Source: Akkermansia muciniphila
GTDB taxonomy: Bacteria; Verrucomicrobiota; Verrucomicrobiia; Limisphaerales; BJHT01
Length of the DNA: 64,000 nt
Reading direction: 5' to 3'
NCBI GenBank assembly: GCA_945861535.1
Contig: CAMAUZ010000031.1
Location: forward strand, 9,761-73,760
The notes beneath the pieces were generated by a model. The model saw only the letters and a program-made list of their open reading frames with translations, was not told where the DNA came from and made no database searches. A program made the position numbers and the translations under genes. Each line of letters begins with the position of its first letter. The first letter of the stretch is position 1. Of the stretch, positions 4,715 through 62,680 are shown piece after piece.

Positions 4715-4760
4715 CGGGATCTCCCGCCGATGCAAAGTGACCACAGATGCAAAATTTAAT

Positions 4761-4938: not shown

Positions 4939-5122
4939 ATAATCCGTGGTCATCCTAAATCTGAGAGCCACAGCGAACGCGTTTTTCCTGCTACCCTCCT
5001 GCCCCCGCTCGCCGTCCCCCATTCAAGTAGAAAAAAAGGCGCGCAACCCCGCGGCTGCGCGCCCTGAATCTCCCAGCCTCACGCCCGGCGGTCACCCGCC
5101 AGCGTTGGCCGTAATACTCCGG

Positions 5123-26355: not shown

Positions 26356-26922
26356 GGCGGCAACGTAGGGAGTCCGGTGGTTTGCGGCAAGCGCGGTGGG
26401 TTGCCGCCGCACCGCATCGGTACATTCCGAAGTTGTGGTGAAGGGCAAGGCCGGGCCGGGGGGGCAGCGGCACGCAAGGAGCGCGGCATTTATGCCGCTT
26501 CAGCGTGCGGCGCGCCGGGCGGGGCCGAACGCGCGGCGACGTTCGGACGGTGAAGCGGCCTGAACAGGCTGTGTGAAAACCCCCGCGCGCAAGCTCGCCG
26601 CCGAGGGGCGGAAAATCCTGGCTCCGCAACAGCGCACCGTGAGGCCGAAGTGCCGGAAAGCGGCGGCGGGGGCGGGCGCTGATTGCCTCCAACGTGATCT
26701 TTTCAGCGGACCTCTCTGCGCTCTTCCCATCTCTGCGGTGTTCTGTTTTCGCGCCGTTCACCACACGCGTCCCCCCGGTCAACCACCCGCGCCCGGCAGG
26801 CGCAGCGCGAGCACCGAACACCGCAGAGATGGGAAGAGCGCAGAGACGGAACAAAAAGGCCCAGCCGCGCCCAACGCGGCCTGACTCGCCTGAAACTGCA
26901 CCCCGATCGTCGGACCGGATTT

Positions 26923-26997: not shown

Positions 26998-27278
26998 CAA
27001 AACTCCCCTGTCCCACGCCCGTGCGCGCTGCGGGAGTTTTCACACAGTCTGTGAAGGCCGCGCTCCGCCTGCATCGCTACGGCTGATTGCGGTTTGCTTG
27101 AAACTCGGCGGTGCCACGCGCCACCCCCCCCCGGACGCACCAAGGAATGTCCCGCATTGGGCAAGTTTTGGTTGGTACCGATTCGCCGGGGAGTTCAGTT
27201 TCACTACGTGGACGCGGGGCGCGGCAGCGCACGCCACGCTTCCAAATTGCAACGCAACTCAGCCCATAGAAAAAGCCC

Positions 27279-31655: not shown

Positions 31656-31850
31656 TCGGTTGCGGCTCCGCCGCGCTGTGTTCCTGGTGTCTCGGTGGTC
31701 CATCAGAATCGGCTCGACTGCATCGTTGCGGCTTAGTGGGGACGGGCCGTCCCCACCCCGAGGATGATGGAACTTATTGTGGCGCATCACGGTCCTGTGG
31801 CACTCGCAGGCGGGCCGCCCGCGCTCCTGTCCGACATCCCCTCCTGACCC

Positions 31851-37440: not shown

Positions 37441-38439
37441 ATGAACAATGTCGCCTTCTACGATACCAAACCCTACGACCGCGTTTACATGGAACGCGCG
37501 GAGCGGAGCAACGAGCTGCGCTGGCAGTTCCATGAGTTCCGGCTGACTCGCGAGACGGCGGGCACCGCCGGCGGCGCGCAGTCCGTCTGTGTCTTCGTCA
37601 ACGACCGGCTCGACCGGCCGTGTCTGGAAGCCCTGCATGCCGGTGGCGTGCGCCACATCGCCCTGCGGTGCGCCGGCTTCAACAACGTGGACCTGGACGC
37701 CGCGCGCGCCGTGGGGCTGGCCGTCACGCGGGTGCCGGCTTATTCGCCCCACGCCGTCGCCGAGCATGCCGTCGGCCTGTTGCTGACCCTCAATCGCAAA
37801 ATCCACCGGGCCTACAACCGGGTGCGGGAACACAACTTTTCCCTGGCGGGCCTGGTGGGATTCGACCTCTGCGGCAAGACGGTGGGCGTGGTGGGCACGG
37901 GCAAAATCGGACGCATCGCCGCGCAGATTTTTCGCGGCTTCGGGACCACGGTGCTGGCGTACGACCCGTTCCCCGCGCCCGAATGGGCCACGGTCCAGCA
38001 GGTGACCTACGTGGATTTTCCCGATGTGCTGGCCCGCAGCGACATCCTCACTCTGCATCTGCCGCTGACACCCGAGACGCACCAACTCTTGAACGAACGC
38101 ACGCTGGCCATGCTCAAGCCCGGCGCGTTTGTCATCAACACCAGCCGCGGGAAACTCATCGACAGCACCGCGCTCATTCAGCATCTCAAAAGCGGCCATC
38201 TCGGCGGGGTCGCGCTCGATGTGTACGAAGAGGAGGAGGGCATCTTCTTCGAGGACCATTCCAGCACTGTGCTGCAAGACGACGAGCTCACCCTGCTGCT
38301 GTCCTTCCCCAATGTCCTCATCACTTCCCATCAGGCGTTCCTCACCCAGGAGGCGTTGGGCGAAATCGCCCGCGTCACGACGGCGAACCTGCTGGCGCTG
38401 GGGCGGGGCGATTTTCTCCCGGGCAGCCGGCTGGCCTGA
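37441..38439 (+). CDS. ldhA: D-lactate dehydrogenase (D-isomer-specific 2-hydroxyacid dehydrogenase), paralogue 1
   Basis: 332 aa. It is collinear with E. coli LdhA as I recall it: ...ALRCAGFNNVDL...VPAYSPHAVAEH...LNRKIHRAYNRVREHNFSL...GTGKIG...NTSRG...GHQAFLT-type motifs. Confidence 0.9.
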   Translation: MNNVAFYDTKPYDRVYMERAERSNELRWQFHEFRLTRETAGTAGGAQSVCVFVNDRLDRPCLEALHAGGVRHIALRCAGFNNVDLDAARAVGLAVTRVPAYSPHAVAEHAVGLLLTLNRKIHRAYNRVREHNFSLAGLVGFDLCGKTVGVVGTGKIGRIAAQIFRGFGTTVLAYDPFPAPEWATVQQVTYVDFPDVLARSDILTLHLPLTPETHQLLNERTLAMLKPGAFVINTSRGKLIDSTALIQHLKSGHLGGVALDVYEEEEGIFFEDHSSTVLQDDELTLLLSFPNVLITSHQAFLTQEALGEIARVTTANLLALGRGDFLPGSRLA

Positions 38440-38980
38440 GTCGTAACGATGCCATGACGGGAGCGCGGGTGTCCGCGCCCGCCCCCGGCGCGCACTGAGC
38501 CGCAACCCAAGGAGCGCGGCTGTGTCCGCCGAGGACCAGCCGCAGCAGCCCCGAAACGTCGTGGGCGCCCGTAGAAAACAGACGCTTCCCGTGCGGTCAA
38601 CCTGCTGCGGCTGGTGCTCCGCGCACACAGCCGCGCTCCGGGAAAAATCCACGCGGCCCGCGAGGATTTGGCAGGGTTGTAGTACAGGGCGGCGGAGCCG
38701 CAACCCCAGCGGAGCGCGGCGTTCACGCCGCTTCACCGTTTGAACCTCGTCGCGGGTCCGACCCTGTCCGCACCGCTCACGCTGAAGCGGCGTAAATGCC
38801 GCGCTCCGGGAAAAATCCTCGCGTGGCGCGAGGCTTTCGGCGCGCGGGCGGTCCCCGCCTGCGCGGCACCGCACCGGCGACAACGGCAGATATTCCTCAC
38901 ACCCCGGCTCCGAAGTTGCCGCTGCGACCGGGGACCGTTCGCGCTCGGCTTGGGTTGCGGCTGCGCCTTCAGGGCAATCA

Positions 38981-41901: not shown

Positions 41902-42375
41902 ATGCAACGGCTCACTGAAGGTGTCCACCGCTTTCAGCGCGAGCAGTCCGGTCGATACCGGGCGCGCTGCAAGAAGCTGCCCCGGCAGGGCCAGAATCCG
42001 GAAACCCTTTTCCTCACCTGCTCGGACACGCGCGGGCTCGCCGAGTTGATCACCCAGAGCCAGCCCGGCGATTTGTTCGTGGTGAAAAAACGTCGGCAAC
42101 ATCGTGCCCCCGGCCACCGTCAGCGGCGACACCGACTCCACGGCTGCCGCCGCCATCGAGTTTGCCATGCAGGTGCTCAAGGTGAGCGACATCGTCCGGT
42201 GCGGACATTCGCAATGCGGCGCGGTGGCGGCGCGGTGGCGGCGCTGCTGGCCGGCGGGGTGGACCGCCAGGCTCGGCCGCACCTTTCCCGCTGGCTGGAC
42301 CTGGCCGTGCCGGTGCGGCGTGCCATCGCCAAGGAATACGCCCATCTGCCCGGCGGTGCCGAACGGCTGCGCACC
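41902..42375 (+). pseudogene. Beta-class carbonic anhydrase, frameshifted twice and C-terminally truncated
   Basis: Frame 1 reads MQRLTEGVHRFQRE...[33 protein letters not shown]. Frame 2 after the A6 run (42085-42090) reads [48 protein letters not shown]. The sequence returns to frame 1 after an 11-bp tandem duplication (42218-42239): [32 protein letters not shown]... Confidence 0.8.
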
Positions 42376-42800
42376 ACCGCCCCGTTCATTGTCTATACCT
42401 CGAACGTCTGCGCCACCCTCGGGCTGCGCTCGATGTTCTTCGCCGTGGCCGGCATCATGAAACGGTTCCACTACCTGCACTACGGGCTGGCGGCGGTGCT
42501 CGTGTTCGTCGGCACTAACCCGTAACCATGCAGTGAGGGCGACCGGAGCGCGGCCTTCAGGCCGCAGAAATGTCCACCCGCAGCGACCGTTCCAAACCAC
42601 TCGAACCCGTACCTCCACGCACCATTGAGTGAGTCAAAAAAGGCGTCTGGAAATTTGCTCGCCCCACACAGTATCCACACTTCTGCGGCCGGAAGGCCGC
42701 GCTCCTGCTGCATCGTCACGGCTAAGATGCTGGTGGCGGACTGCTACAAAATCCCGACGTTGGCTTCGCTGCTCCACGCTCTGCGCGCCAGCCAAAAGAA
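42376..42800 (+). pseudogene. TerC-family membrane protein, C-terminal fragment split by a MITE
   Basis: [45 protein letters not shown] is fused in frame to the carbonic anhydrase remnant and is interrupted at 42519-42721. It continues KMLVADCYKIPTLASLL after the insertion. Removing the element and one CTAA restores ...VFVGTKMLVAD... Confidence 0.75.
42519..42721. mobile_element. MITE family C, copy 1 (203 bp) with perfect CTAA target-site duplication
   Basis: CTAA flanks it at 42515-42518 and 42722-42725. The terminal inverted repeats are cccgtaaccatgcag...ggagcgcggccttcaggccgcagaa and ttctgcggccggaaggccgcgctcc...ctgcatcgtcacgg. Confidence 0.85.
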
Positions 42801-43108
42801 ACCAACGCAGCCGCTGCCGCCGCAAACAACCATGTTCCTGCAACCGCAGATTGACACCCACTCACCCTCCCGATGTCATCGCGGCCGGGCTGGCTGCCGC
42901 GGTCGGATGACCGCAATGTGTCCCCGCAAAACAATCTCCCGGATCAGTTCCGGATCAGTTCCGGATCGTGAAACCACCAGACTACAGCACAACCAAACAA
43001 CCCCGGCCTGACCATGTAAACAGTCCGCCTGCTCAACAGCGGCGGCGGTCAGGCCTACCAACCGCACCCTGACCGCCACCGGTTGCGGCCCACCGGCCCC
43101 TTCAGACC

Positions 43109-43849
43109 ATGAAAATCCTCCATGCCATTCTGCTCCTCACCCTCCTCGCCGGCACCCCCATCCATGCCGCTGACCGGCAGGATCACAACATCCATCTCTG
43201 GCTCAACTACGTCGGCGATCATCCCCTCGGCGCCGGCCCGTGGGGCGTGCATCTCGAAACTCAGATACGCCGCGCCGACTTCGGCCGGAACTGGCAACAA
43301 TTCCTGCTCCGCCCCGGCGTCAACTACGCCTTCAGCCCCGCCCTGAACGCCACGCTTGGCTACGCGTTTGTCGATACCTACCGGTACGGCGATTATCCCG
43401 CCCTCGACACCTTTCCTGAGCACCGGGTCTGGGAGCAACTCTCCTACACGCACAAAGCCTTCGACTTGGAATGGCAGCATCGCTTCCGGCTCGAGCAACG
43501 CCACCTCGGCGAACTGGGCGCCAACGGCAGCGGCGGTTTCAACGTGGTGAACTTCCGCTACGAAAACCGCTTCCGCTACCAACTGCGCACCACGGTCCCG
43601 CTGGCCGCGGACCAGAAGACCTATCTCGCCTTGTGGAATGAACTGTTCTTCAACTTTGGTCGCAACGTGTCCGGCAACGACTTCGATCAAAACCGCGCCT
43701 TCATCGGCCTCGGGCGCAAGCTCACCGACACCACCCGGCTGGAAGTGGGCTTCTTGGAGCAAACGCTGCAACGCCGCGGCGGGACGATCTGGGAAAACAA
43801 TCACACCGTCGCCGTGTGGCTCACCTCCAAGCTGCCGTTCGGAAAGTAG
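43109..43849 (+). CDS. DUF2490 domain-containing outer-membrane beta-barrel-like protein
   Basis: 246 aa with a signal peptide (MKILHAILLLTLLAGTPIHA). The sequence WLNYVGDHPL...LRPGVNYAF...LGYAFV...EHRVWEQL...RFRLEQR matches my recollection of DUF2490. Confidence 0.8.
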   Translation: MKILHAILLLTLLAGTPIHAADRQDHNIHLWLNYVGDHPLGAGPWGVHLETQIRRADFGRNWQQFLLRPGVNYAFSPALNATLGYAFVDTYRYGDYPALDTFPEHRVWEQLSYTHKAFDLEWQHRFRLEQRHLGELGANGSGGFNVVNFRYENRFRYQLRTTVPLAADQKTYLALWNELFFNFGRNVSGNDFDQNRAFIGLGRKLTDTTRLEVGFLEQTLQRRGGTIWENNHTVAVWLTSKLPFGK

Positions 43850-44055
43850 GCGTACGGACGTCCGCAACTCGATGCCCCGGTCATCCGCCGGAACAGCCGG
43901 TGACCGCAGTTCCTGGCCACGCCACTGGTCATCCGATCCCTGAAGCCCCAACCATTCGTCGCGCCGAATCAACGGGACCGGCCGACCCCGGGGCGTCGCC
44001 CGTCCCGCAGCAGCACCGTCACCACTCGTCGCCTCGGGCCGATCGGGCCGCCAGC

Positions 44056-44465
44056 GACCAGCCAACCTCCCGGGCCGTTTCTTCGATGCCCCGCCTGGGG
44101 AACGGAGCCATTGGGCACGGGTTCCGGGGGCGGCGTCCGCTGGCGCGGGCTTGCCCCCGGCTAACCCGTGACTATTCAGTGAGGGCAACAGGAGCGCGGC
44201 CTTCAGGCCGCAGAAACGTGCGTCGTGTCTGGGGTGAGCGAATTTTCAGACAATCTCTTCCGCATCACCAAATAGTGAGTGGCGGTACGCGTTCGGGTGG
44301 TTTGGAACGGTCCGTGCCAAGGGACGCTTCTGCGGCCTGAAGGCCGCGCTCCCATCGCGCTGACTGCATGGACACGGCGAAGCTCCTCTGGCGTCCCTCC
44401 GGGACCGGAACCAGGGGGCCACGCACTGACCAAGTGAAACCACCGGCACCGGAATGGCGTTCCTT
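44056..44465. repeat. Family D repeat, copy interrupted by MITE C2 (filled site)
   Basis: Segments 44056-44164 and 44382-44462 align with the two halves of 31484-31655. The break falls exactly at the CTAA of cttgcccccggCTAA. Confidence 0.8.
44165..44377. mobile_element. MITE family C, copy 2 (213 bp)
   Basis: The left flank is CTAA (44161-44164) and the right flank is CGAA (44378-44381), one mismatch. The ends are cccgtgactattcagtgagggcaacaggagcgcggccttcaggccgcagaa and ttctgcggcctgaaggccgcgctcc...ctgcatggacacgg. Confidence 0.8.
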
Positions 44466-44481
44466 ATCAGTTTTTGCGGAA

Positions 44482-44694
44482 GTTCGTGCCGTCCGCACCG
44501 GGGCCTCCGTATCCCTCGCCTCCGTTCGGAACGGGGCAGAGGGGAGGGGAGAGGAGGCGCTCCGCAAGGTTGGGCCGCTCGCCATGGTGAAGCCCCCCTT
44601 TCCCCAGCCCTCGCCCCGTTCGTGTCTCACGGGGCGAGGGAGACGGACGCGCTGCTGGTTACAGCAGTCCCGGCGGGAACGTTCGCAACGATTG
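44482..44694. repeat. Family E repeat copy 1 (about 213 bp; ...ccgttcgtgYctcacggggcgagggagacggacgcg...)
   Basis: It aligns along its whole length with 62468-62680. It contains the internal hairpins ctccgttcggaacgg and gagggga/tcccc-type arms. It generates spurious peptides of the type HERGEGRGEG. Confidence 0.85.
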
Positions 44695-44842
44695 CCAGTC
44701 ATTTGGTTGCGGCGCCGCGGCTCGGTGTTCATCGTGTATCGGCGGTGCATTGGCATCGGCTCGACTGCCGCGTTGCGGCTGAGTCGTCCCGGGCCGGTGG
44801 CAGCATCACCCAGCGCATGAAAACGGTTTCGTCGGCAAATTT

Positions 44843-47569
44843 ATGAAGACCCTGACCGACAAAGTCTGGCACCACATGCCGGCCGAAGCGGTCGTGCAGT
44901 TCCTCGGCGTGAATCTGGCCACCGGCCTGTCGGCGGATGAAGTTGGCAGGCGCCAGCAAGAATTCGGGCCGAACCGCGTCACCGCGCGGCGGGGCAAACC
45001 GGCGTGGGTCAAGTTTCTCCAGCAGTTCAACCAGCCGCTCGTTTACATCCTGCTCCTGGCGGTCGGCGTGACGGCTTTCCTCGGCGAATGGGTGGATTCA
45101 GCCGTCATCTTCGGCGTCGTGTTCGTCAACGCCATCGTCGGTTTCCTTCAGGAGGCCAAGGCCGAGAAGGCCATCGCGGCGCTAGCTAAAATGGTCGCCA
45201 CCGAAACCACCGTACGCCGCGACAGTCGCAAACTCCGCGTCCACTCCGAGGAACTCGTCCCGGGCGATGTGGTGCTCCTCCAATCCGGCGACCGCGTGCC
45301 CGCCGACCTGCGGCTGTTCCACGTTCGCAATCTGCAGGTGGATGAATCCGCCCTCACCGGCGAGTCGCTCCCCGTGTCCAAGCATCCCGACCCGCTGGCG
45401 CACGATACGATTCTCGCGGAACGGAAAAATCTCGCCTACGCGGGCACGCTCATCAGCAGCGGGCAGGCCGAAGCCGTCGTGTGGGGCATTGGCGATAAGA
45501 CGGAGACGGGCCGCATCGGCCAGCTCATTTCCAGCGCGGTCGAGTTGTCCACGCCGCTGACGAAGAAAATCGCGCAGTTCAGCCAACTGGCGCTCTGGAT
45601 CATTCTCGCGCTGGCCGCCGCGACGTTTGCCGTGGGCGTCGCGCGCGGCGAAAAGCCGGCGGCCATGTTCCTGGCCGCGGTGGCGCTGGCGGTCGGCGCG
45701 ATTCCCGAGGGCCTGCCCGCCGCCGTCACCATCGTGCTCGCCATCGGGGTGTCCCGGATGGCGAAGCGGCAGGCCATCATCCGCAAGCTGCCCGCGGTCG
45801 AGACGCTCGGCAGCACGACGGTGATTTGCTCGGACAAGACCGGCACGCTCACCGAGAACCAGATGACCGTGCAGGAGATTCTCGCGGGCGGAAAACTCTA
45901 CGAGGTCACCGGCGCGGGCTACGAACCCAAGGGTGAGATCCGCCATGGGGGAGCGGCCGTCCATGCACCGGAACATCCCGCGCTCGCCGAGTGCCTGCGC
46001 GCCGGGGTGCTGTGCAACGATTCGCAACTCGTGCGCGAAGCCGGCCGGCTCAAGGTGCAGGGCGACCCCACCGAGGCCGCGCTGCTGGTCGCCGCCGGGA
46101 AGGGCGGGCTGATTCACGCGGACACGCATCGCGATTCGCCGCGCGTGGACACCATTCCCTTCGAGTCCGAGCACATGTTCCGCGCCACGCTGCACGAGGC
46201 GCACCCCGCTCGCGTCATCTACAAAGTCGGCGCTCTCGAACGCCTGCTCGAACGCTGCACCGACGCGCTCGGCGAGCGCAACACCCTGGTCCCGCTCGAC
46301 AAGGTCGCCGTGCATCGCGCCGCCGAGACGATGGCCGGGCGCGGACTGCGCGTGCTGGCCCTGGCCCGCCGCCATGTGGCCGGGCACCACGCCAAACTCG
46401 AGCACGCCCACGTCTCCGGAGGTCTCACCTTCCTCGGGCTGCAGGCGATGATGGACCCGCCGCGACCTGAGGCTATCGCGTCCGTGCGCGAGTGCCAGCG
46501 CGCCGGCATCGCCGTGAAGATGATTACCGGCGACCACCTTGTCACCGCCCGCGCCGTCGCCGGTCTGATTGGGTTGAAGGGGCGCGAGGAACACGGGCAA
46601 CTGGTCGCCCTCTCCGGCCGCGAACTGGAGAAAATTTCCGACGAAGAACTGCCCGCAGTCGCCGAACGCACCGCCGTCTTCGCCCGCGTCGCCCCCGAAC
46701 AAAAGCTCCGGCTCGTCAAGGCGCTGCAAGCACGCGGCCACGTCGTCGCCATGACCGGCGACGGCGTGAACGACGCCCCCGCCCTCAAGCAGGCGGACAT
46801 CGGCGTGGCGATGGGCATCACCGGGACGGACGTGGCCAAGGGCGCCGCCGCGATGATTCTCACCGACGACAACTTTGCCTCCATCGGGGCCGCCGTGGAG
46901 GAAGGTCGCGGCGTGTTCGACAACCTGACCAAGTTCATCGTCTGGACGCTGCCAACCAACGTGGGTGGGGCCATGGTGCTGCTCACGGCCATCCTGTTCG
47001 GCACCGTGCTGCCCGCGTTGCCGGTGCAATTGCTCTGGGTCAACATGATGACGGCCCTCCTGCTGGGCCTGATGCTGGTGTTTGAGCCGAAGGAGCCGGA
47101 TCTCATGGGCCGTCCGCCGCGCGATCCGCGGCGCCCGTTGCTGACCTTTCCGCTGCTGATGCGCACCGGGTTGGTCTCGCTCATCATCCTGGCCGGGGCG
47201 TTCTGGGTGTTCTTTTGGGAATTGCGGGCGGCAGGCGCGACCGAGTCCGCCGCGCGCACCGCCGTCACCAATGTCATAGTGGCGGTCGAAATCGCCTACC
47301 TCTTCAGTTGCCGTTCCCTTCACCACTCCGTCTTCGCCATCGGGCTGTTCACCAACCGCTGGGCCGTCGCCGGCTCGCTGGCGATGCTCGGGGCGCAACT
47401 CCTCTTCACCTACGCGCCGGTGATGCACCAACTTTTCCACACCGCCCCGATTGACGCCGCGTCCTGGCTGCGCATCGCCGGCGTGGCCGGCGCGGCCTTG
47501 GTGGCGGTGGAACTGGAAAAGTGGTTGCGCTTCGGCGGGCGTCGCAGCCGGCCCGCGTTGCCAGAATGA
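44843..47569 (+). CDS. Cation-translocating P-type ATPase (P2/SERCA-like), paralogue 1
   Basis: 908 aa. It has TGESLPV, PEGLPAAVTI, the phosphorylation motif CSDKTGTLTENQMTV and the hinge MTGDGVNDAPALKQADIGVAMG. Confidence 0.95.
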   Translation: MKTLTDKVWHHMPAEAVVQFLGVNLATGLSADEVGRRQQEFGPNRVTARRGKPAWVKFLQQFNQPLVYILLLAVGVTAFLGEWVDSAVIFGVVFVNAIVGFLQEAKAEKAIAALAKMVATETTVRRDSRKLRVHSEELVPGDVVLLQSGDRVPADLRLFHVRNLQVDESALTGESLPVSKHPDPLAHDTILAERKNLAYAGTLISSGQAEAVVWGIGDKTETGRIGQLISSAVELSTPLTKKIAQFSQLALWIILALAAATFAVGVARGEKPAAMFLAAVALAVGAIPEGLPAAVTIVLAIGVSRMAKRQAIIRKLPAVETLGSTTVICSDKTGTLTENQMTVQEILAGGKLYEVTGAGYEPKGEIRHGGAAVHAPEHPALAECLRAGVLCNDSQLVREAGRLKVQGDPTEAALLVAAGKGGLIHADTHRDSPRVDTIPFESEHMFRATLHEAHPARVIYKVGALERLLERCTDALGERNTLVPLDKVAVHRAAETMAGRGLRVLALARRHVAGHHAKLEHAHVSGGLTFLGLQAMMDPPRPEAIASVRECQRAGIAVKMITGDHLVTARAVAGLIGLKGREEHGQLVALSGRELEKISDEELPAVAERTAVFARVAPEQKLRLVKALQARGHVVAMTGDGVNDAPALKQADIGVAMGITGTDVAKGAAAMILTDDNFASIGAAVEEGRGVFDNLTKFIVWTLPTNVGGAMVLLTAILFGTVLPALPVQLLWVNMMTALLLGLMLVFEPKEPDLMGRPPRDPRRPLLTFPLLMRTGLVSLIILAGAFWVFFWELRAAGATESAARTAVTNVIVAVEIAYLFSCRSLHHSVFAIGLFTNRWAVAGSLAMLGAQLLFTYAPVMHQLFHTAPIDAASWLRIAGVAGAALVAVELEKWLRFGGRRSRPALPE

Positions 47570-47582
47570 CCAACGATTTACC

Positions 47583-48581
47583 ATGACCACCATCGCCTTC
47601 TACGACACCAAAGTTTACGACCGGCAATACTTCGAGCGCGCCGCCGACGCCGGGCGCTTGCGCTGGCGGTTTCATGACTTCCGCCTCACCAGCGAGACCG
47701 CCGCCAGCGTGGCCGGCGCGCAGGCCGTCTGCGTGTTTGTCAACGACCGGCTCGACGCTTTGTGTTTGCAGCAACTGCACCAGGCCGGCGTGCGGCTCGT
47801 GGCGCTGCGCTGCGCGGGCTTCAACAACGTGGACCTCACCGCCGCGCAGGCGCTCGGCCTGACCGTCACGCGCGTGCCCGCCTACTCCCCGCACGCCGTC
47901 GCTGAACACACCGTCGGGCTGCTGCTCACGCTCAACCGCAAGATTCACCGCGCCTACAATCGCGTCCGCGAACACAATTTTTCCTTGAGCGGCCTGGTCG
48001 GCTTCGATCTCTACGGCAAGACCGTCGGCGTCGTGGGCACCGGGAAAATTGGCCGCGTCGCCGCGCAGATTTTTCGCGGCTTCAACACCACGGTGCTCGC
48101 CTACGACCCCGCGCCCGCGCCGGACTGGGCGGGGCAGCACGGCATCCGCTACACCGACCTCGACGCGCTGCTGGCTGCCAGTGATGTCGTGTCCCTGCAC
48201 CTGCCGCTCACGCCGCAATCCCGTTACCTGCTCAACGCGGAAACCTTCGGGCGGATGAAACCCGGCGCGTACCTCATCAACACCAGCCGCGGCAAACTGG
48301 TGGACACCACCGCGCTCATCGCGGCGCTCAAGTGCGGCCGGCTCGGCGGCGTCGCGCTCGATGTTTACGAGGAGGAGGAAGGGCTTTTCTTCGAGGACCA
48401 CTCCGGCGAAGTGCTGCAAGACGACGAACTGTCGCGGTTGCTGACGTTTCCCAACGTGCTCATCACCGCGCACCAGGCCTTTCTCACGCGCGAGGCGCTG
48501 ACCGAGATCGCGCGCGTGACGACGGAAAACCTGTTGCGCGCGGCCACCGGAGACTTTCTGACCGGCACCCGCCTGGCCTGA
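47583..48581 (+). CDS. ldhA: D-lactate dehydrogenase, paralogue 2
   Basis: Track ORF 47451..48581. I chose Met45 (nt 47583), giving MTTIAFYDTKVYDRQYFERA.... It is 332 aa, the same length as the 37441 copy, and by eye roughly three-quarters identical to it. It starts 13 nt after the ATPase stop. Confidence 0.9.
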   Translation: MTTIAFYDTKVYDRQYFERAADAGRLRWRFHDFRLTSETAASVAGAQAVCVFVNDRLDALCLQQLHQAGVRLVALRCAGFNNVDLTAAQALGLTVTRVPAYSPHAVAEHTVGLLLTLNRKIHRAYNRVREHNFSLSGLVGFDLYGKTVGVVGTGKIGRVAAQIFRGFNTTVLAYDPAPAPDWAGQHGIRYTDLDALLAASDVVSLHLPLTPQSRYLLNAETFGRMKPGAYLINTSRGKLVDTTALIAALKCGRLGGVALDVYEEEEGLFFEDHSGEVLQDDELSRLLTFPNVLITAHQAFLTREALTEIARVTTENLLRAATGDFLTGTRLA

Positions 48582-48764: not shown

Positions 48765-51221
48765 ATGAAAACGCCTATGAAACTAACTCCCAAACTGAAA
48801 CGAAACCGGCCGCCCTCGAACGCGCGTCCTGCCCCATCGCAAGCGGCACCCGCGCCGGCGACCGCTGACGATGCTCTCGACCGCTACCTGCGCGCCGTGA
48901 ACTACCTCGCCGCCGCCCAGGTTTATTTGCAGGGCAATGCGCTGCTGGAAAAACCGCTCCGTCCGGAACACATCCGCGAGCGGTTGCTGGGGCATTGGGG
49001 CACTTGTCCGGGCATCAATTTCATTTACACGCACCTGAACCGGCTCATCCGCACGACCGACGCGAGTGTGTTGCTGCTGACCGGTCCGGGGCACGGCGCG
49101 GCGGCTAATCTGGCCAACGCTTATCTCGAAGGCTCGCTTCAGGAAGTGTATCCCGACCTCACGCGCGACCGCGCCGGATTGGAACGGTTCGTCAAACGGT
49201 TCTCCTGGCCGGGCGGTTTTGCGAGCCATCTCAATCCCGAATTGCCCGGCGTCATTCACGAGGGCGGCGAGTTGGGTTACGCGCTGGCGACGGCGTTCGG
49301 CGCGGTGTTCGACAATCCCGACCTGATCGCCGCGTGCATCGTCGGTGATGGCGAGGCGGAGACCGGCCCCACCGCCGGAGCGTGGCACAGCGGGAAATTT
49401 TTGAACCCGGCCACGGATGGCGCGGTGCTGCCCATTCTTCTGCTGAACGGATTCAAAATCGCCAACCCCACGCTGTTCGCTTCGATGACTGATGACGAAT
49501 TGTTCGCGTTGTTCACCGGCAACGGCTGGCAGGCGCGCATCGTCGCGACGGAGGCCCACGCGCATCGCGACATGGCGGCGGCGCTCGACTGGGCTTACGG
49601 CGAGATTCGTTCCCTGCAACACGCGGCCCGCTCCGGCCGCGGGGCGGAGCGTCCTCGCTGGCCCATGATTATTCTGCGCACGCCCAAGGGTTGGACCGGT
49701 CCCGTCACGGTGGATGGCAAGGCGGTGGAAGGTTCCTACCGCGCGCATCAAGTGCCGGCCAAGGAATGCAAAACCAACCCCGCCCATCGCAAGATCATCG
49801 AACGCTGGCTGCGCTCGTATCGGCCCGAAGAACTCTGGGATGAACAAGGCCGCCCGCATGCGGACCTCCTCGCGCTTTGTCCCCAAGGCGACCGGCGCAT
49901 GGCGATGAACCCGCACACCAACGGTGGGAAACTGCGCCGGCCGCTCGACCTGCCGCCGTTGGAAACTTTCGCCGTGGACGCCCGCGGTCGCGGCGAGGTG
50001 CGCGTGAGCGGCATGGAGATGCTCGGCAAATACCTCGCGGAAGTCATCCGCCGGAGCGAACCGCAGCGGCACTTCCGCATCGTGTGCCCGGACGAATTGG
50101 AATCGAACAAGCTCGGCGCGGTGCTCGCGGTGACGCAGCGCCAGTTCGCGTGGCCTGTGCCGCTTCACTCCGAGAACATCGCGCCGTCCGGGGCGGTGCT
50201 CGAAGTGTTGAGCGAGCACAATTGCCAGGGCTGGCTGCAAGGCTACCTCCTCACGGGCCGGCACGGATTGTTTCCCTGCTACGAGGCGTTCATCTCCATC
50301 GTGGACGGCATGATGAACCAGTATGCGAAGTTCATTAAAGCCTCCGGCGAAGTGCCGTGGCGCGCGCCCGTTTCCTCGCTCAATTATCTGCTCACCTCCG
50401 AGACGTGGCGGCAGGAGCACAACGGTTACTCCCATCAAGGGCCGGGCTTCATCAACAATCTGCTCACCAAAAAAGGGCACACCTACCGCATCTACCTGCC
50501 GCCCGACGCGAACACGCTGCTCAGCACCGTCCAGCACTGCCTGCGCTCGACGGGCTACATCAACCTCATCATCGCCGCCAAGCATCCGCTGCCCCAATGG
50601 CTGAGTCCCGCCGAGGCGGACGAACACTGCCGCGTCGGCGCGTCGGTGTGGCGCTGGGCCAGCACGCATGGCGACGAAGAGCCGGAAGTCGTGCTCGCCG
50701 GTTGCGGCGACAATCTCACCGTGGAAGTGATGGCGGCGGCGCAGATTCTCGGCGAAGAAGCGCCTGCCTGGCGCGTGCGCGTCGTCAACGTGACCGACCT
50801 TCATGTGATTGGAATTCCGCAGAAATATCCGCACGGCCTGGAGGAAGACCGCTTCCAACGCCTGTTTCCGCTGGGCTGTCCCGTGGTGTTCAACTTCCAC
50901 GGCTACACCGCCGCCATCAAACAACTGCTGTGGGAGCGGCCCGAGAACGAACGCTTCGACGTGAACGGTTACCGCGAGGAAGGCACGACCACCACGCCGT
51001 TCGACATGCAGGTGCGCAACAAAACGAGCCGCTGGCATCTGGTCATTCTCGCCGCGCAAAAGCTCGCCGCGCGCAACCCGCGCATGGCGGCGCTCGCCGA
51101 GGAACTGATTCGCCGCTACGAACTCAAACTCACCGAGCACCACGCCTACGTGCGGGCCACGAGCATTGACCCGCCGGAAATCCTGAACTGGCGCTGGCAG
51201 GCGCGCCCGGCTGGTAAATGA
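48765..51221 (+). CDS. xfp: Phosphoketolase (xylulose-5-P / fructose-6-P)
   Basis: 818 aa. The sequences LDRYLRAVNYLAAAQVYLQGNALLEKPLRPEHIRERLLGHWGTCPGINFIYTHLNR and EGGELGYALATAFGAVFDNPDLIAACIVGDGEAETG are hallmark phosphoketolase blocks. The alternative start at 48777 cannot be excluded. Confidence 0.95.
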   Translation: MKTPMKLTPKLKRNRPPSNARPAPSQAAPAPATADDALDRYLRAVNYLAAAQVYLQGNALLEKPLRPEHIRERLLGHWGTCPGINFIYTHLNRLIRTTDASVLLLTGPGHGAAANLANAYLEGSLQEVYPDLTRDRAGLERFVKRFSWPGGFASHLNPELPGVIHEGGELGYALATAFGAVFDNPDLIAACIVGDGEAETGPTAGAWHSGKFLNPATDGAVLPILLLNGFKIANPTLFASMTDDELFALFTGNGWQARIVATEAHAHRDMAAALDWAYGEIRSLQHAARSGRGAERPRWPMIILRTPKGWTGPVTVDGKAVEGSYRAHQVPAKECKTNPAHRKIIERWLRSYRPEELWDEQGRPHADLLALCPQGDRRMAMNPHTNGGKLRRPLDLPPLETFAVDARGRGEVRVSGMEMLGKYLAEVIRRSEPQRHFRIVCPDELESNKLGAVLAVTQRQFAWPVPLHSENIAPSGAVLEVLSEHNCQGWLQGYLLTGRHGLFPCYEAFISIVDGMMNQYAKFIKASGEVPWRAPVSSLNYLLTSETWRQEHNGYSHQGPGFINNLLTKKGHTYRIYLPPDANTLLSTVQHCLRSTGYINLIIAAKHPLPQWLSPAEADEHCRVGASVWRWASTHGDEEPEVVLAGCGDNLTVEVMAAAQILGEEAPAWRVRVVNVTDLHVIGIPQKYPHGLEEDRFQRLFPLGCPVVFNFHGYTAAIKQLLWERPENERFDVNGYREEGTTTTPFDMQVRNKTSRWHLVILAAQKLAARNPRMAALAEELIRRYELKLTEHHAYVRATSIDPPEILNWRWQARPAGK

Positions 51222-52429
51222 ACATTCTCGCCGTCAACAGTGGCAGCACCTCGCTCAAGCTCGATTTGATGCAGGTCGAATCGTCCGGCGCCGCGCCGCG
51301 CCGCCTGGTGCGTGGCCGGGTGGAACGCTTCGGGCCGGAGGCGGCGACGGACTTCCAACTCGGTGACGGCGAGCGTTTCCGCAGCTCGAAAAACGTAGCC
51401 GACCATCGAGCGGGCGTGAGTTGGTTCCTCGACAACCTGGCCGCCGCCTCCGGGGGTACGCTGCTGCCCATCGCGGCGGCGGTTCATCGCGTCGTGCATG
51501 GCGGCGCGCGTTTCACCGCGCCGGCGCTGCTGGACGAAGGAGTGCTCGCCGAGTTGGAAGCACTGAGCGAACTGGCCCCGCTGCACAATCCGCCCGCGTT
51601 GACCGCCATCCGCGCCGTGCAGTCCGCGCTCGGAGCGGACGTGCCGATGGTGGCCGTTTTCGACACCGCCTTTCACCGCGCCCTGCCACCGCGCGCCGCA
51701 AACTATCCCTTGCCGCACGAACTCACCGCGCGCCACGGCCTGCGCCGCTTCGGGTTTCACGGCATCGCCCACGACTGCATGCTCCGCCGCTACGCGCAAC
51801 TGGCCGGGGTGCCCATCGAGGAGGCGGTGCTCATCACGTTGCAACTCGGGGGAGGATGTTCCGCGGCGGCGATTCGTGGCGGGCATTCCGTGGACACTTC
51901 GATGGGTTTCACGCCGCTCGAAGGTTTGATGATGGGCACGCGCACGGGCGACCTCGACCCCGGTCTGCTGCTTTATCTCGCGCGCAAAGAGGGCCTGGGC
52001 GTCGCCGATTTGGAGAACCTGCTGAACCAACGTTCTGGTCTGCTCGGCGTTTCCGGCCGGTCAGCGGACCTGCGCGAGGTGTTGGCCGCTGCACCCCATG
52101 ATGCGCGAGCCGCACTCGCCGTGGACATGTTTTGCTACCGGGCGCGGAAGTATATCGGCGCCTATCTCGCCGCGCTCGGTGGCGCGCAAGCCGTCGTGTT
52201 CGGCGGCGGCGTCGGCGAAAATCAGCCGCTCATCCGGCTGCGGATCTGTGAAGGCTTGGACTGGTTCGGACTGGTGCTCGACCCGGCGCGCAATGCGGCG
52301 GCCGCGGGTGTCGAAGGTCGGATCAGTCGTGACGATGCCCGCGTTCAGGCGTGGGTCGTGTCCGTGGATGAAGCCGCGCTCATGGCGGAAGGCGCCGCCG
52401 AATGTCTGCGCGGTAACCATGCAGTCTGA
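51218..52429 (+). CDS. ackA: Acetate kinase
   Basis: 403 aa. The sequences are MNILAVNSGSTSLKLDL...HRVVHGG...FDTAFH...GFHGIAH. An ATGA overlap joins it to xfp. Confidence 0.95.
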   Translation: MNILAVNSGSTSLKLDLMQVESSGAAPRRLVRGRVERFGPEAATDFQLGDGERFRSSKNVADHRAGVSWFLDNLAAASGGTLLPIAAAVHRVVHGGARFTAPALLDEGVLAELEALSELAPLHNPPALTAIRAVQSALGADVPMVAVFDTAFHRALPPRAANYPLPHELTARHGLRRFGFHGIAHDCMLRRYAQLAGVPIEEAVLITLQLGGGCSAAAIRGGHSVDTSMGFTPLEGLMMGTRTGDLDPGLLLYLARKEGLGVADLENLLNQRSGLLGVSGRSADLREVLAAAPHDARAALAVDMFCYRARKYIGAYLAALGGAQAVVFGGGVGENQPLIRLRICEGLDWFGLVLDPARNAAAAGVEGRISRDDARVQAWVVSVDEAALMAEGAAECLRGNHAV

Positions 52430-52672
52430 GCGCGGCGCGTGGGCGTCTCGCCCGCTCAGCGCGGTCAAACCACGGGTGGGAGCACTTTTCCCGACGCGCA
52501 CAAAGGGCACCGAACGGTGAGCCGAAAGCGGCGATTGCGGCCAGCGTTTCCGGCCCGATCCCGCGGTGAGCGGGCGCGACGCCCGCGGTCCAATCACTGC
52601 ATGGTTACGGCTAGGGTTTGACCCCATTGGGATCGCGGGCCTTCCGGTTATCCTCGCTCCAACTGAAATGAC

Positions 52673-52978
52673 ATGACCAACGAATCCATCGCCTGCTTCT
52701 TGATCGCGATCGCCTTGGAGCCGGGGATGCCGCGCGGTCGCGGTTGCCGCGGCGGCTTGGGCGTGCTCGCGGGCGACACGATTCGCTCCGCTGCCGGACC
52801 GCCCGCGCGGTTGAAGGCAATCGCGTCCCGCGCCAGCCGCCGGTCGATCGTCTCGGGCGGCACGGCGCATCCGCGGTCCGACGCGGGCCGGCGCGTCCGC
52901 CAGCACCTCGCGCGCAACGCCTCGCACAGCAACCCCCGGCGGCTGGTTCAGGAATACGTCGCGCAAGCCTGGTCCTGA
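52673..52978 (+). pseudogene. Alpha-glucan (glycogen) phosphorylase remnant: N- and C-terminal ends retained, core deleted
   Basis: IACFLIAIALEPGMP..GGLGVLAGDTIRSAA resembles the conserved N-terminal block (IAYFSMEI.LEPGMPTYSGGLGVLAGDT.RSAAD). The tail SNPRRLVQEYVAQAW resembles the C-terminal F.s.RMv.eYv block. Only 101 codons remain, against roughly 700-850 aa in intact homologues. Confidence 0.5.
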
Positions 52979-53016
52979 CCGTCTCTGCGCCGCAGCCCCC
53001 CAACCCCACCCAACCG

Positions 53017-55965
53017 ATGCCCCAACTCGATCCTCCTCCCAAAAATCCTCCGGCAAAAAAACCGGCGGGCGACGATGTCGCGAAGCGGGCCTACGCCATC
53101 TATGAGAAGGAAGGCCGGCCGCAAGGCCGTGACGTGCAGAATTGGTTGGAAGCCGAAGCCACCGCGCCGCTCGCCGCTGCTGCGCCGTCCGCCGCCACTG
53201 CGCCGCCCGCCGCCACTGCGCCGCCCGCGGGCGAGGCCGCGCCGACCACGGCCACCGAGCAGGCGTGGCATCACTTACCGGCCGATGAATTCGTGAAACT
53301 TCTCGGCGTAGCTCTGTCCGCCGGCTTGTCGGCGGATGAAGTTGCGCGTCGCCAGAAAGAGTCCGGCCCGAACCGCGTCACCGCGCGGCGGGGCACGCCG
53401 GCGTGGAAGAAATTTCTCCAGCAGTTCAACCAGCCGCTCGTTTACATCCTGCTTGTCGCGGTCGCGGTCACGGCAGCCCTCGGCGAGTGGGTGGATGCGT
53501 CGGTCATCTTCGGCATCGTGCTGTTCAATGCCGTCGCCGGCTTCCTCCAGGAATCCAAGGCCGAGACCGCCATCGCGGCGCTCGCCAAGATGGTCGTCAC
53601 CGAGGCGACGGTGCGTCGCGATGGGAAAAAGCTGCGCGCCCCTTCCGAGTCGCTCGTCCCTGGCGATGTCGTGTTGCTGCAATCCGGCGACCGCGTGCCC
53701 GCCGACCTGCGGCTCCTCGACATCCGCAATTTGCAGGTGGACGAATCCGCGCTCACCGGCGAGTCGCTCCCCGTGGCGAAGCAGCCCGACGCGCTGCCGC
53801 CGGAGACCGTCCTCGCCGACCGCAAGAACCTCGCCTTCGCCGGCACCTTCGTCACCAGCGGCCAGGCCGAGGGCGTCGTGTGCGCCATCGGCAACCAGAC
53901 CGAGACCGGCCGCATCGCCGGGCTAATCGCGGGCGCGGTCGAGTTGTCCACGCCGCTCACGAAACAAATCGCGCAGTTCAGCAAGCTTGTGCTCTGGATC
54001 ATTCTGGGACTGGCGGCGGCGACCTTCGCGCTCGGCGTCGCGCGCGGCGAGAAACCGGCCGAGATGTTCATGGCCGCCGTGGCGCTCGCGGTCGGCGCGA
54101 TTCCCGAGGGACTGCCCGCCGCCGTCACCATCGTGCTCGCCATCGGCGTGTCCCGCATGGCGAAGCGGCAGGCCATCATCCGCAAGCTGCCCGCCGTCGA
54201 GACACTCGGCAGCACCACCGTCATCTGCTCGGACAAAACCGGCACGCTCACCGAGAACCAGATGACGGTGCGGGAAATTTTCGCGGGCGGAAAACGCTAC
54301 GAACTCACCGGCGCGGGCTACGAACCGAAGGGCGAACTCCAGCTCGAGGGCGCGGTCGTGAAGTTGCCCGAGCATCCCGCACTCGCCGAGTGCCTGCGGG
54401 CCGGCGTGCTCTGCAACGATTCAAAACTCGGACAGGAGGACGGGCGGCCCAAGGTGCAGGGGGATCCCACCGAGGCCGCGTTGATCGTCGCCGCCGAAAA
54501 GGGCGGGCTGAAACACGACGACCTCGTTCGCGAAGCGCCGCGCGTGGACATGATCCCCTTCGAGTCCGAGCACATGTTCCGCGCCACGCTGCACGAGGCG
54601 GGCGAGGGCCGCGTCATCTATCAGGTCGGCGCGCTCGAAGCGCTGCTCGACCGCTGCACCGACGCTCTTGGCGACAACAACGCGGTCGGCGAACTCGACA
54701 AGGACGCCGTGCATCGCGCCGCCGAGACGATGGCCACGCGCGGCCTCCGCGTGCTGGCCCTCACGCGTCGGCAAGTGGACAAACAGCACGCCAAGCTCGA
54801 GCACGCCCACGTCGCCGAGGCGCTCACGTTTCTCGGCTTGCAAGGCATGATCGATCCGCCGCGCGCCGCCGCCATTGCTGCCATCGGCCAGTTCGCCCGC
54901 GCTGGCATCACCGTGAAAATGATCACGGGCGACCACCTCGTGACCGCCCGCGCCATCGCCGAGCAGATTGGACTGAAGGGCAAAGACGAGCACACGCCGC
55001 TCGTCGCGCTCGCCGGCGGTGAACTGGAGAAAGTTTCCGACGCCGATCTGCCCGACGTGGCCGAGCGCACCGCCGTCTTCGCCCGCGTCGCGCCCGAGCA
55101 GAAACTTCGCCTCGTGCAGGCGCTTCAGTCGCGCGGCCACGTCGTCGCCATGACCGGCGACGGCGTGAACGACGCCCCCGCGCTCAAGCAGGCCGACATC
55201 GGGGTGGCGATGGGCATCAGCGGCACGGACGTGGCGAAAGGCGCGGCCGCGATGATTCTCACCGACGACAACTTCGCCAGCATCGAGGCCGCCGTGGAGG
55301 AAGGCCGCGGCGTGTTCGACAACCTCACCAAGTTCATCGTCTGGATCATCCCGACCAACCTCGGCGAGTCGTTGATGCTGCTGACCGCCATCGTGCTCGG
55401 CCTGCCGCTGCCGTTGCTGCCGCTGCAACTCCTCTGGATCAATCTCACCGACACGCTGCTCGGGCTTTCCCTGGCGTTCGAGCCGAAGGAGGGCGACGTG
55501 ATGAGCCGCCCGCCACGCCCGCCGAAGCAGTCCTTGCTACCGCTGCCGCTCATCCGGCGTGCCGGACTCGTGTCGTTCATCATGGTGGCCGGCGGGTTGG
55601 GCCTGTTCTGGTGGGAAATGCGCGTGGCGCAGACCGGGGAGGCCGTGGCCCGCACGGTGGCCGTGAACGTCATCGTGCTGATCCAGCTCTTTTACCTCTT
55701 CAATTGCCGCTCGCTGCAGCGCACGGCCTTCGCCATCGGGCTGTTCACCAACCGCTGGGTCATTGCCGGTTCGCTGGGCATGGTGGGCGCGCAACTTCTC
55801 TTCACCTACGTGCCGGTGATGAACCGGCTCTTCCACAGCGCGCCGATCTCGGGTTGGGCGTGGCTGCGCATCCTGGGCGTCGCGGCGGTGGTGTATGTCG
55901 CCGTCGAAGTTGAAAAATGGCTTCGCTTCCGGCGGGGTCGCGCCAGCGCCGGCGTGCCCGCGTGA
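53017..55965 (+). CDS. Cation-translocating P-type ATPase (P2/SERCA-like), paralogue 2, with N-terminal DUF2934-like extension
   Basis: Track ORF 52744..55965. I chose Met92 (nt 53017). The N-terminus (DVAKRAYAIYEKEGRPQGRDVQNWLEAEA) matches the DUF2934 pattern. An Ala/Pro linker follows, containing an 18-bp x2 repeat (about 53190-53226). The remainder is an ATPase core collinear with paralogue 1 (CSDKTGTLTENQMTV, MTGDGVNDAPALKQADIGVAMG). Confidence 0.92.
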   Translation: MPQLDPPPKNPPAKKPAGDDVAKRAYAIYEKEGRPQGRDVQNWLEAEATAPLAAAAPSAATAPPAATAPPAGEAAPTTATEQAWHHLPADEFVKLLGVALSAGLSADEVARRQKESGPNRVTARRGTPAWKKFLQQFNQPLVYILLVAVAVTAALGEWVDASVIFGIVLFNAVAGFLQESKAETAIAALAKMVVTEATVRRDGKKLRAPSESLVPGDVVLLQSGDRVPADLRLLDIRNLQVDESALTGESLPVAKQPDALPPETVLADRKNLAFAGTFVTSGQAEGVVCAIGNQTETGRIAGLIAGAVELSTPLTKQIAQFSKLVLWIILGLAAATFALGVARGEKPAEMFMAAVALAVGAIPEGLPAAVTIVLAIGVSRMAKRQAIIRKLPAVETLGSTTVICSDKTGTLTENQMTVREIFAGGKRYELTGAGYEPKGELQLEGAVVKLPEHPALAECLRAGVLCNDSKLGQEDGRPKVQGDPTEAALIVAAEKGGLKHDDLVREAPRVDMIPFESEHMFRATLHEAGEGRVIYQVGALEALLDRCTDALGDNNAVGELDKDAVHRAAETMATRGLRVLALTRRQVDKQHAKLEHAHVAEALTFLGLQGMIDPPRAAAIAAIGQFARAGITVKMITGDHLVTARAIAEQIGLKGKDEHTPLVALAGGELEKVSDADLPDVAERTAVFARVAPEQKLRLVQALQSRGHVVAMTGDGVNDAPALKQADIGVAMGISGTDVAKGAAAMILTDDNFASIEAAVEEGRGVFDNLTKFIVWIIPTNLGESLMLLTAIVLGLPLPLLPLQLLWINLTDTLLGLSLAFEPKEGDVMSRPPRPPKQSLLPLPLIRRAGLVSFIMVAGGLGLFWWEMRVAQTGEAVARTVAVNVIVLIQLFYLFNCRSLQRTAFAIGLFTNRWVIAGSLGMVGAQLLFTYVPVMNRLFHSAPISGWAWLRILGVAAVVYVAVEVEKWLRFRRGRASAGVPA

Positions 55966-62131: not shown

Positions 62132-62247
62132 AAAAGCTCCAAGCTCAAAGTTCAAAGCTCAAGGGAAGCACCATATTTCAAGGGCCAAGGACCGGAGCTG
62201 GGAGAAAAATTGAGCGCAGAAAACGGGGAGGCTTCAGTCTTCGCTAA

Positions 62248-62461
62248 ACCGTAACTATGCAGTCGGCGCGGCAGGAGCGCGGCCTTCAGGCCGCAGAAGC
62301 ACCCGCCCGCCGCGACGGCTCGAAACTTTCCGAACGCGCACCTCAACTCACCATTTGGTGAATCAAAAAAAGCAGTCGTGAAAATTCGATCACCCCATGC
62401 AAGCCGCACGTTTCTGCGGCCTGAAGGCCGCGCTCCGGTTGTCCTCGCTGCATGGGTACGG
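62248..62461. mobile_element. MITE family C, copy 3 (214 bp) with perfect CTAA target-site duplication
   Basis: CTAA flanks it at 62244-62247 and 62462-62465. The ends are accgtaactatgcagtcgg...ggagcgcggccttcaggccgcagaa and ttctgcggcctgaaggccgcgctcc...ctgcatgggtacgg. Confidence 0.85.
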
Positions 62462-62467
62462 CTAAAG

Positions 62468-62680
62468 ATCGTGCCGTCCGCACCGGAGCCTCAGGCTCCC
62501 TCTCCTCCGTTCGGAACGGAGGAGAGGGTTGGGGAGAGGAGGCGCTCCGAAAAGTTGGGCCGCTCGGAATTGTGAAGCACCCCTCTCCCCGACCCTCTCC
62601 CCGTTCGTGCCTCACGGGGCGAGGGAGACGGACGCGTGACTTGTTAGAACGGTCCCGCCACGAACTTTCGCAACGATTGA
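62468..62680. repeat. Family E repeat copy 2
   Basis: It aligns with 44482-44694. Its left terminus appears to be split by MITE C3. Confidence 0.85.

Follow-up and report, generated by a model that had tools for sequence, protein, structure and literature searches.

Insertion sequences (ISs) of the IS1380 family have ends that begin with CC (ISfinder), and elements of the IS5 group produce 4-bp duplications at YTAR sites. The direct repeats of the IS1380 family are 4–5 bp long (PMC12116815), that of IS1247 being 5 bp (PMC3281130, Table 2), and IS1380 transposases form the prokaryotic outgroup of piggyBac (PMC10813416). By the same end-resemblance logic as is applied below, MITEPye1, a bacterial miniature inverted-repeat transposable element (MITE), has been linked to IS1182 (PMC11578231). 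Here we describe three repeats of ~200 bp in a 64,000-nt stretch of DNA, hereafter the window (positions 9,761–73,760 of contig CAMAUZ010000031.1 in assembly GCA_945861535.1, labelled Akkermansia muciniphila). The three repeats are real miniature transposons, which show every testable property of bacterial MITEs. Their sequences make it very probable that they are non-autonomous MITEs with IS1380-family ends, which would have been mobilised in trans, with 5-bp target-site duplications (TSDs).

Copy 1 (202 bp, positions 42520–42721 on the plus strand; nhmmer E = 2.5e-57) is bounded by terminal inverted repeats (TIRs) at 42520–42533 and 42708–42721, and contains two hairpin modules at 42545–42569 and 42681–42705. 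The modules of copy 2 (212 bp, 44166–44377; E = 2.9e-65 on the minus strand) lie at 44191–44215 and 44328–44352, and those of copy 3 (213 bp, 62249–62461 on the plus strand; E = 5e-65) at 62274–62298 and 62412–62436. All three copies terminate in CCGT...ACGG within the 14-nt TIRs, the end sequence of the MITE (14-bp TIR) being CCGTRACNATKCAG, and the terminal motif CCGTRACYATKCAG fits all six ends with zero or one mismatch. The original prediction, which had been made from the sequence alone, recognised three copies, one of them in a TerC gene remnant. These copies were confirmed in the sequence together with their 14-nt ends and 25-nt modules, and the left boundaries proposed for them (42519, 44165, and 62248) had to be moved one base inward, to 42520, 44166, and 62249.

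The two arms of the elements are complementary at 80–91% across 50–54 nt. The 25-mer GGAGCGCGGCCTTCAGGCCGCAGAA matches the window six times, once in each arm, as compared to 0.00 matches expected from 100 shuffles. This module reads GGAGC-GCGGCC-TTCA-GGCCGC-AGAA, and thus contains the small hairpin GCGGCC-TTCA-GGCCGC. In the right arm of copy 1, a 9-nt deletion has left a spacer of just 2 nt between the TIR and the module, whereas the other five arms have 11 nt here. The spacing of ~10–11 nt that had been predicted for the left arm agrees with this, and the description of the right-arm modules as almost adjacent applies to copy 1 only, copies 2 and 3 having 11 nt in both arms. As single-stranded DNA, copy 3, which has the central palindrome TCACCATTTGGTGA, adopts a single long hairpin (−63.7 kcal/mol, z = −6.5, DNA fold). 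The interior of copy 2 has to be reverse-complemented to align with copies 1 and 3, the direct alignment being good only at the ends, indicating that copy 2 was inserted in the opposite orientation. The pairwise identity among the three copies is 77–80%, and the elements, at 202–213 bp, are devoid of transposase coding capacity.

When read as 5-mers, the flanks of copy 1 are CTAAC (42515–42519) and CTAAG (42722–42726), which agree at 4/5 positions, the fifth base of the left TSD being unlike that of the right one. Copy 2 has a decayed duplication, CTAAC (44161–44165) and CGAAG (44378–44382), with 3/5 bases matching, and copy 3 has a perfect 5-bp repeat, CTAAA on the left (62244–62248) and on the right (62462–62466) (5/5). 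A close relative in locus L071 is flanked by CTAAG/CTAAG. In contrast to the 5-bp reading, a 4-bp reading leaves one extra base at the left end, which is C, C, and A in copies 1, 2, and 3, respectively. In the orientation of the element, this extra base switches ends in the inverted copy 2, and therefore belongs to the target and not to the element.

A search of metagenomes for arms with the pattern ATGCAG + 1–14 nt + GGAGCGCGGCNTTNANGCCGC yielded 105 loci, in which the five bases outside each arm end read CTNAG on the arm's own strand. The duplication was then evaluated in 52 non-redundant complete relatives of 150–260 bp. The flank repeats were perfect over 3 bp in none of these, over 4 bp in one, over 5 bp in 19, and over 6 bp in one, and the consensus bases of the flanks were present in 39–45 (C), 43–46 (T), 41–42 (A), and 37–43 (G) of the relatives, with the central base N equiprobable. 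When the flanks were re-paired randomly in 5000 shuffles, the mean number of perfect 5-bp repeats was 3.6 (maximum 11), as compared to the 19 observed. Likewise, the central flank base was equal on both sides in 37 of the 52 relatives, as compared to a mean of 13.0 (maximum 26) in 5000 shuffled pairings. These results indicate that the true TSD is 5 bp long and arises at a palindromic CTNAG-like site. The flanks CTAA/CTAA, CTAA/CGAA, and CTAA/CTAA given in the original prediction are thus right in their letters but not as 4-bp TSDs, since the fifth base belongs to the duplication (19/52 at k = 5 against 1/52 at k = 4). The possibility that CTAA is part of the element, which had been named as a refutation, is ruled out because the variable central flank base is duplicated on both sides. 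A 3-bp TAA duplication, with the ends NCCGT...ACGGC, was also rejected, as k = 3 was perfect in 0/52.

An autonomous partner was searched for as matching ends 0.4–5 kb apart in ~1.3 Mb of fetched loci. Only one real IS was obtained from this end-pair search (L138 641–2137, 1497 bp, ends CCGGAACGATTCAG), and it shares a 2.2-kb soil contig with two 193-bp MITEs. The other long candidates were mostly two separate MITEs around a gene (L026/L139) or chance pairs, and were rejected. The 475-aa open reading frame (ORF) of the L138 IS scored 223.2 bits on the NCBIfam model NF033539 'IS1380 family transposase' (cut-off 180), and 3.2e-37 on Pfam PF13701. At E <= 1e-20, 1943 relatives of this transposase were found, mostly on contigs of 1.5–2 kb, as would be expected because an IS is a repeat. 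One relative, P0003, which is 81% identical, lies within a 1496-bp IS with the ends CCGTAACGATTCAG (L207–L211). These ends match at 12/14 positions to CCGTGACGATGCAG, the right end of copy 1, and to CCGTGACTATTCAG, the left end of copy 2. The ends CCGGAACGATTCAG were found on the ISs in L138, L206, L212, and L216.

The partner IS copies are 1.49–1.50 kb long and contain a single ORF of 464–475 aa for a DDE transposase. On the longer contigs they are flanked by perfect 5-bp TSDs, CTTAG/CTTAG in L212/L213 and in L216, and the flanks on short contigs are CATGG/CATGG in L223 and CCCGG/CACGG in L222. The transposase shares 33–36% identity with annotated transposases of the IS1380 family from Aliarcobacter plasmids and ~26% with those like ISSsu5/ISEcp1, indicating that the putative partner transposase is a distant member of the IS1380 family. 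The MITEs and these ISs share the identity of their ends, the 5-bp length of the duplication, an overlapping target consensus, and residence on one contig. The search for an IS with matching ends that had been proposed was thus successful, in related metagenome contigs, although the IS has turned out not to be of the IS5 group, as the CC-initial ends of the MITEs are matched by those of IS1380-family ISs, which have 5-bp duplications of their own. The transposase relatives P0030, P0040, and P0054 from NCBI were set aside, as they come from assemblies other than that of the host genome. One IS1380 copy of this clade, in L206 1–7395, is located among phage-type genes (terminase, DUF4055 portal, scaffold, and Gp13-like) on a 129-kb contig.

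On the basis of these sequence features, we propose that an IS1380-family DDE transposase, supplied by an IS copy elsewhere in the genome or by one that is now lost, would act in trans by binding both 14-bp ends of the MITE. The partner IS in this lineage would be expected to end in CCGTAACNATKCAG. Integration would proceed by 5-bp staggered cuts at a palindromic CTNAG-like site, and repair of the staggered cuts would leave the 5-bp TSD. The palindromic target and the symmetric ends account for insertions in both orientations, of which the inverted copy 2 is an example.

Several observations weigh against this proposal. The duplications around copies 1 and 2 are imperfect (4/5 and 3/5, respectively). 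The sequence shared by the ISs and the MITEs amounts to only ~14–18 nt per end, and the link between them rests on the ends, the duplication length, and the target, because extended homology is absent. In tblastn searches, no IS1380 transposase was found in the window, in agreement with the original prediction, or in the 9.5 kb past its end, and no homologue of the transposase was found in the other ~190 loci. In addition, the IS copies in L206 (CCCGA/CCGAG), L221, and L214 lack a clean duplication; these are on short or prophage contigs, and at repeats a short metagenome contig may be a chimera.

More than 50 complete relatives are found at different loci. The 204-bp copies at distinct loci of one groundwater metagenome reach 97.5% identity and are flanked by perfect duplications, which indicates recent movement in relatives. 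The window copies, conversely, are old, since they are only 77–80% identical, two of the three duplications are decayed, and no presence/absence variation was seen. Related strains had been suggested as a place to look for such polymorphism; ten contigs from other samples that carry an identical DUF2490 gene belong to the same strain (99.8–100% identical), and all keep the MITEs. A scan of genome contigs with the 25-mer yielded at least 89 loci, mostly of other families that carry the module, so that it gives no copy number for the host; among the 25-mer matches listed, a close relative was found only in L071.

Two further loci contain variant junctions. L218, from another sample, matches the window from position 64000 down to 62249, its MITE at 9601–9813 corresponding to 62249–62461, and continues past the far end of copy 3 into unrelated genes (LysR and Oxidored_FMN). 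The L218 MITE is a hybrid, in which the first ~160 nt are those of copy 3 and the last arm and its flank (CTAAA) differ, reflecting either recombination or rearrangement between MITE copies or an assembly chimera at k = 141. In L007 1–80, a different left flank (...ccgttggggCTAAA) is joined to a MITE that resembles copy 1 with 4 mismatches, which hints at a further copy in the population or a chimeric assembly.

The interior of the MITE has a different distribution from that of its ends. The ends of the IS do not carry the GGAGCGCGGC hairpin, and internal deletion of the IS cannot by itself account for the MITE, because the inner GGAGCGCGGCCTTCAGGCCGCAGAA hairpins are absent from the IS and are common to other repeat families. 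A second and much more widespread MITE family of ~176 bp, present in metagenome-assembled genomes (MAGs) of Limisphaerales, has the ends CCCGAACTCCGAAG and a 5-bp TTNAA-type duplication. This family also carries GGAGCGCGGC modules, usually one hairpin of the GGCC type and one of the GGCG type, and is represented in L016 (3240–3415), L028 (2462–2637), L060 (1815–1989), L088 (7566–7724), L093 (4191–4366), and L131 (1782–1966).

In the genome loci listed, 88/99 modules occur as inverted doublets, mostly ~97 bp across. Among L011–L099, 29 clean doublets of ~97 bp are bounded exactly by GGAGCGC...GCGCTCC (e.g. L011 6353–6450 and L014 753–848), and these 29 have no outer TIR, no flank consensus, and no flank repeats of k >= 4 (0/29). 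Such doublets occur in many Limisphaerales genomes and resemble REPINs, the doublets of repetitive extragenic palindromic (REP) sequences; in the window, hairpin doublets lie at 38511–38639, 38710–38808, and ~26478–26565. The pair that closes the stem is of the Watson–Crick type in 103/110 non-redundant arms (A-T 61, G-C 33, C-G 8, and T-A 1), against ~45% expected if the stem-closing positions were independent, a count that is inflated by shared descent within subfamilies.

The MITE thus looks modular, with IS1380-type ends placed around a REPIN-like hairpin core. One possible explanation, which we put forward tentatively and consider less probable than its opposite, is that the GGAGCGCGGC-N-TT-N-A-N-GCCGC doublet is an independent, clade-wide element of Limisphaerales, which was captured repeatedly between IS1380-type ends and whose stem has a function of its own. 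If this were true, the capture would have given rise to at least two chimeric MITE families, CCGK...CTNAG and CCCGAAC...TTNAA, the window copies belonging to one of them, and the four alternative closing pairs would reflect recognition by a second enzyme or a host factor. When the E. coli RayT was compared by tblastn with the module-centred loci (1.39 Mb), the best E was 0.53, in what is a weak test on partial genomes.

These data bear on the other ways in which the repeats might have arisen. Movement by an IS5-group (IS5 family) transposase with a 4-bp YTAR (CTAA) duplication would account for the CTAA on both sides of copies 1 and 3, which fits YTAR. However, the inference of an IS5-group partner from a YTAR site falls because the duplication is 5 bp and not 4 bp, and the base left over at one end, which follows the strand of the target and not the orientation of the element in copy 2, would be unexplained. 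A perfect 4-bp repeat is found in a single relative among the 52, against the 5-bp repeats in 19, and the CC-initial ends, such as CCGTAACCATGCAG, equal those of IS1380-family ISs. We therefore regard an IS5-group origin as very improbable. Even less credit can be given to an IS200/IS605-type, palindrome-associated element lying 3' of a fixed CTAA, with the second CTAA forming its right end and no true duplication. In its favour, hairpins lie subterminally at either end and one tetranucleotide occurs on both flanks, but copy 2 is inverted while CTAA keeps its strand, the central flank base varies freely among the relatives and yet is copied on both sides, and the elements have true TIRs.

The hairpins also raise the question of whether the elements are REP/REPIN-like doublets that were spread by a transposase of the RAYT type (HUH tyrosine), the outer repeats and CTAA being incidental. 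The GCGGCC-TTCA-GGCCGC module, its frequent arrangement as inverted doublets (88/99 in the genome loci listed), the 29 doublets of ~97 bp without outer TIR, duplication, or flank consensus, and the Watson–Crick closing pairs of four types in 103/110 arms are all in keeping with this view. Conversely, the window elements are bounded by outer TIRs and flanked by a real duplication of 5 bp, a product foreign to RAYT/REP systems, neither a GTAG nor a CGTC tag stands beside the hairpin on either strand (criterion of PMC3733652), and the weak RayT test detected nothing in the module-centred loci. A RAYT-type origin is thus very unlikely for the mobility of the whole element, and may instead apply to the source of the inner module. 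A comparably small probability is assigned to the view that the repeats are not transposons but chiefly serve the host, for instance as terminators, regulatory sites, or genes for structured RNAs. The strong fold (z = −6.5), the conservation of the stem with compensatory changes, and the intergenic locations would be consistent with such a function. However, Rfam gave no match at the gathering score, no promoter- or terminator-like site lies in copies 1–2, copy 1 is inside a remnant of coding sequence, and the TIRs, the duplications, and the near-identical dispersed copies in relatives show mobility. The elements may nevertheless have a secondary host role beside their mobility.

The surroundings of the copies in the window are as follows. 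Copy 1 interrupts a TerC-family gene remnant, whose part before the insertion (42373–42519, plus strand) corresponds to residues 158–205 of ORF 41902–42525 and matches Pfam TerC, and whose part after the insertion (42722–42760, plus strand) begins with K-M-L-V-A-D. A 103-aa gene in this region was called as TerC. Excision of copy 1 with one copy of the flank (207 nt) restores ...VFVGT-KMLVAD..., and the rejoined protein matches the TerC profile without a gap over the junction (positions 128–176 of 178), with a score of 39.1 bits as compared to 33.6 before. The rejoining of the TerC frame, which had been predicted, is borne out by this ungapped match. The same ORF contains fragments of a beta-carbonic anhydrase (Pro_CA) in two frames (41902–42460), followed by the C-terminal part of TerC, and the surroundings of copy 1 are a gene graveyard, a mosaic of pseudogene pieces. 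Copy 2 is intergenic, between the DUF2490 gene and a P-type ATPase gene, and lies upstream of the latter. Copy 3 is flanked by a hypothetical gene and a gene for a LuxR-type response regulator. A scan of 42300–44900 revealed no promoter- or terminator-like site within copies 1–2, and no Rfam match was found in the whole window. The repeat families of the window recur in MAGs labelled Limisphaerales, Pedosphaera, or Verrucomicrobiota.

Other relatives and decayed arms are also present in the window. A related 200-bp element at 52411–52610 has the 14-nt ends CGGTAACCATGCAG and CCGTAACCATGCAG, as in the three copies, with a different, hairpin-rich interior, and is flanked by CTGCG/CTAGG. The acetate kinase ORF 51218–52429 runs into the left end of this element (52411–52429), from which it takes its final five codons (G-N-H-A-V) and its stop codon. 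A solitary or decayed arm of the same superfamily, at 27051–27082 on the minus strand, consists of CCGTAGCGATGCAG, a 2-nt spacer, and GGAGCGCGGCC. A solitary end, CCGCAACGATGCAG, at 31710–31731 on the minus strand is preceded by CTAAG on its own strand, and a decayed arm beginning with TCGTAACGATGCC at 38442–38468 on the plus strand is preceded by CTGAG.

A repeat type that is rich in CCCTCTCC/GGAGAGGG palindromes lies directly beside copies 2 and 3 (44480–44694 and 62465–62679). Such repeats are also found at L138 271–359 and 553–640 and to the right of the IS in L205, L206, L210, and L221, and they adjoin many IS1380 copies in metagenome contigs; this repeat may be favoured as a target for insertion, or it may itself be another small element (~90 bp). 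The pair 62465–62679 and 44480–44694 was considered as an empty-site paralogue for copy 3 and was rejected, since the repeat begins only after the duplication.

Larger repeats were also seen in the window. The regions 44843–47569 and 52744–55965, which contain two P-type ATPase ORFs, are paralogous at ~77–80% DNA identity, as are 37517–38394 and 47659–48536, and both pairs suggest an old segmental duplication of ~8–10 kb inside the window. A unit of ~481 bp is present in three tandem copies at 3793–4941 (two repeat families). At 29365–30546, a 69-nt coding motif (...ACCTGCTCGATGCACCCGCAG...GGCAAATGCCCG...TGCTCGATG) is repeated fourfold; the encoded motif is rich in Cys/His and probably represents a repeated metal-binding domain.

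The MITEs described here are of an ordinary kind, but they belong to a large superfamily in Verrucomicrobiota that is apparently undescribed. A literature search found no MITE tied to the IS1380 family and no MITEs in Verrucomicrobiota; it covered one literature collection and is not proof of novelty. These elements matter for annotation, in that they break metagenome assemblies, many contigs of this strain ending inside them, and interrupt or extend genes, as in the TerC remnant and at the 3' end of ackA. Masking of the elements and reconstruction of their empty sites become possible once the ends are known exactly, together with the 5-bp CTNAG duplication and the IS1380 partner. In addition, the modular hairpin core, which is absent from the IS but common across families, provides a tractable case of MITE assembly.

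As compared to described bacterial MITEs (Correia/NEMIS, RUP, ERIC, Nezha, and MITEPye1), the window elements are likewise small, non-coding, bounded by TIRs, and flanked by TSDs. They are also multi-copy and mostly intergenic, fold into a long hairpin, and have ends like those of an IS able to act in trans. They differ in that the partner is of the IS1380 family and in that the interior is not derived from the IS but is a hairpin module common to families of the clade. With REP/REPIN sequences they share inner modules that are short, GC-rich hairpins in inverted doublets, including the TIR-less doublets of ~97 bp without duplications in the clade, whereas the window elements lack the GTAG/CGTC tag and possess outer TIRs and 5-bp duplications.

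Compared with IS1380-family members (IS1247, ISEcp1/ISEc9, and ISPme1), the partner ISs are similar in that they score above the NCBIfam cut-off, are ~1.5 kb long with a single ORF, and have short CC-initial TIRs and 5-bp direct repeats. The differences are that a palindromic CTNAG/TTNAA preference was not found described in the literature searched, and that the window contains non-autonomous derivatives only. With piggyBac, the likeness lies in a short, palindromic, T/A-centred target, which is TTAA there and CTNAG or TTNAA here, whereas piggyBac duplicates 4 bp and the present elements duplicate 5 bp, the central one of which is free; any homology of mechanism would be putative. Overall, the present elements would extend the IS1380 family, known until now mostly for gene capture of the ISEcp1 type, by a large MITE superfamily, and would give this family a defined palindromic target, CTNAG/TTNAA, that recalls the TTAA of its eukaryotic piggyBac relatives.

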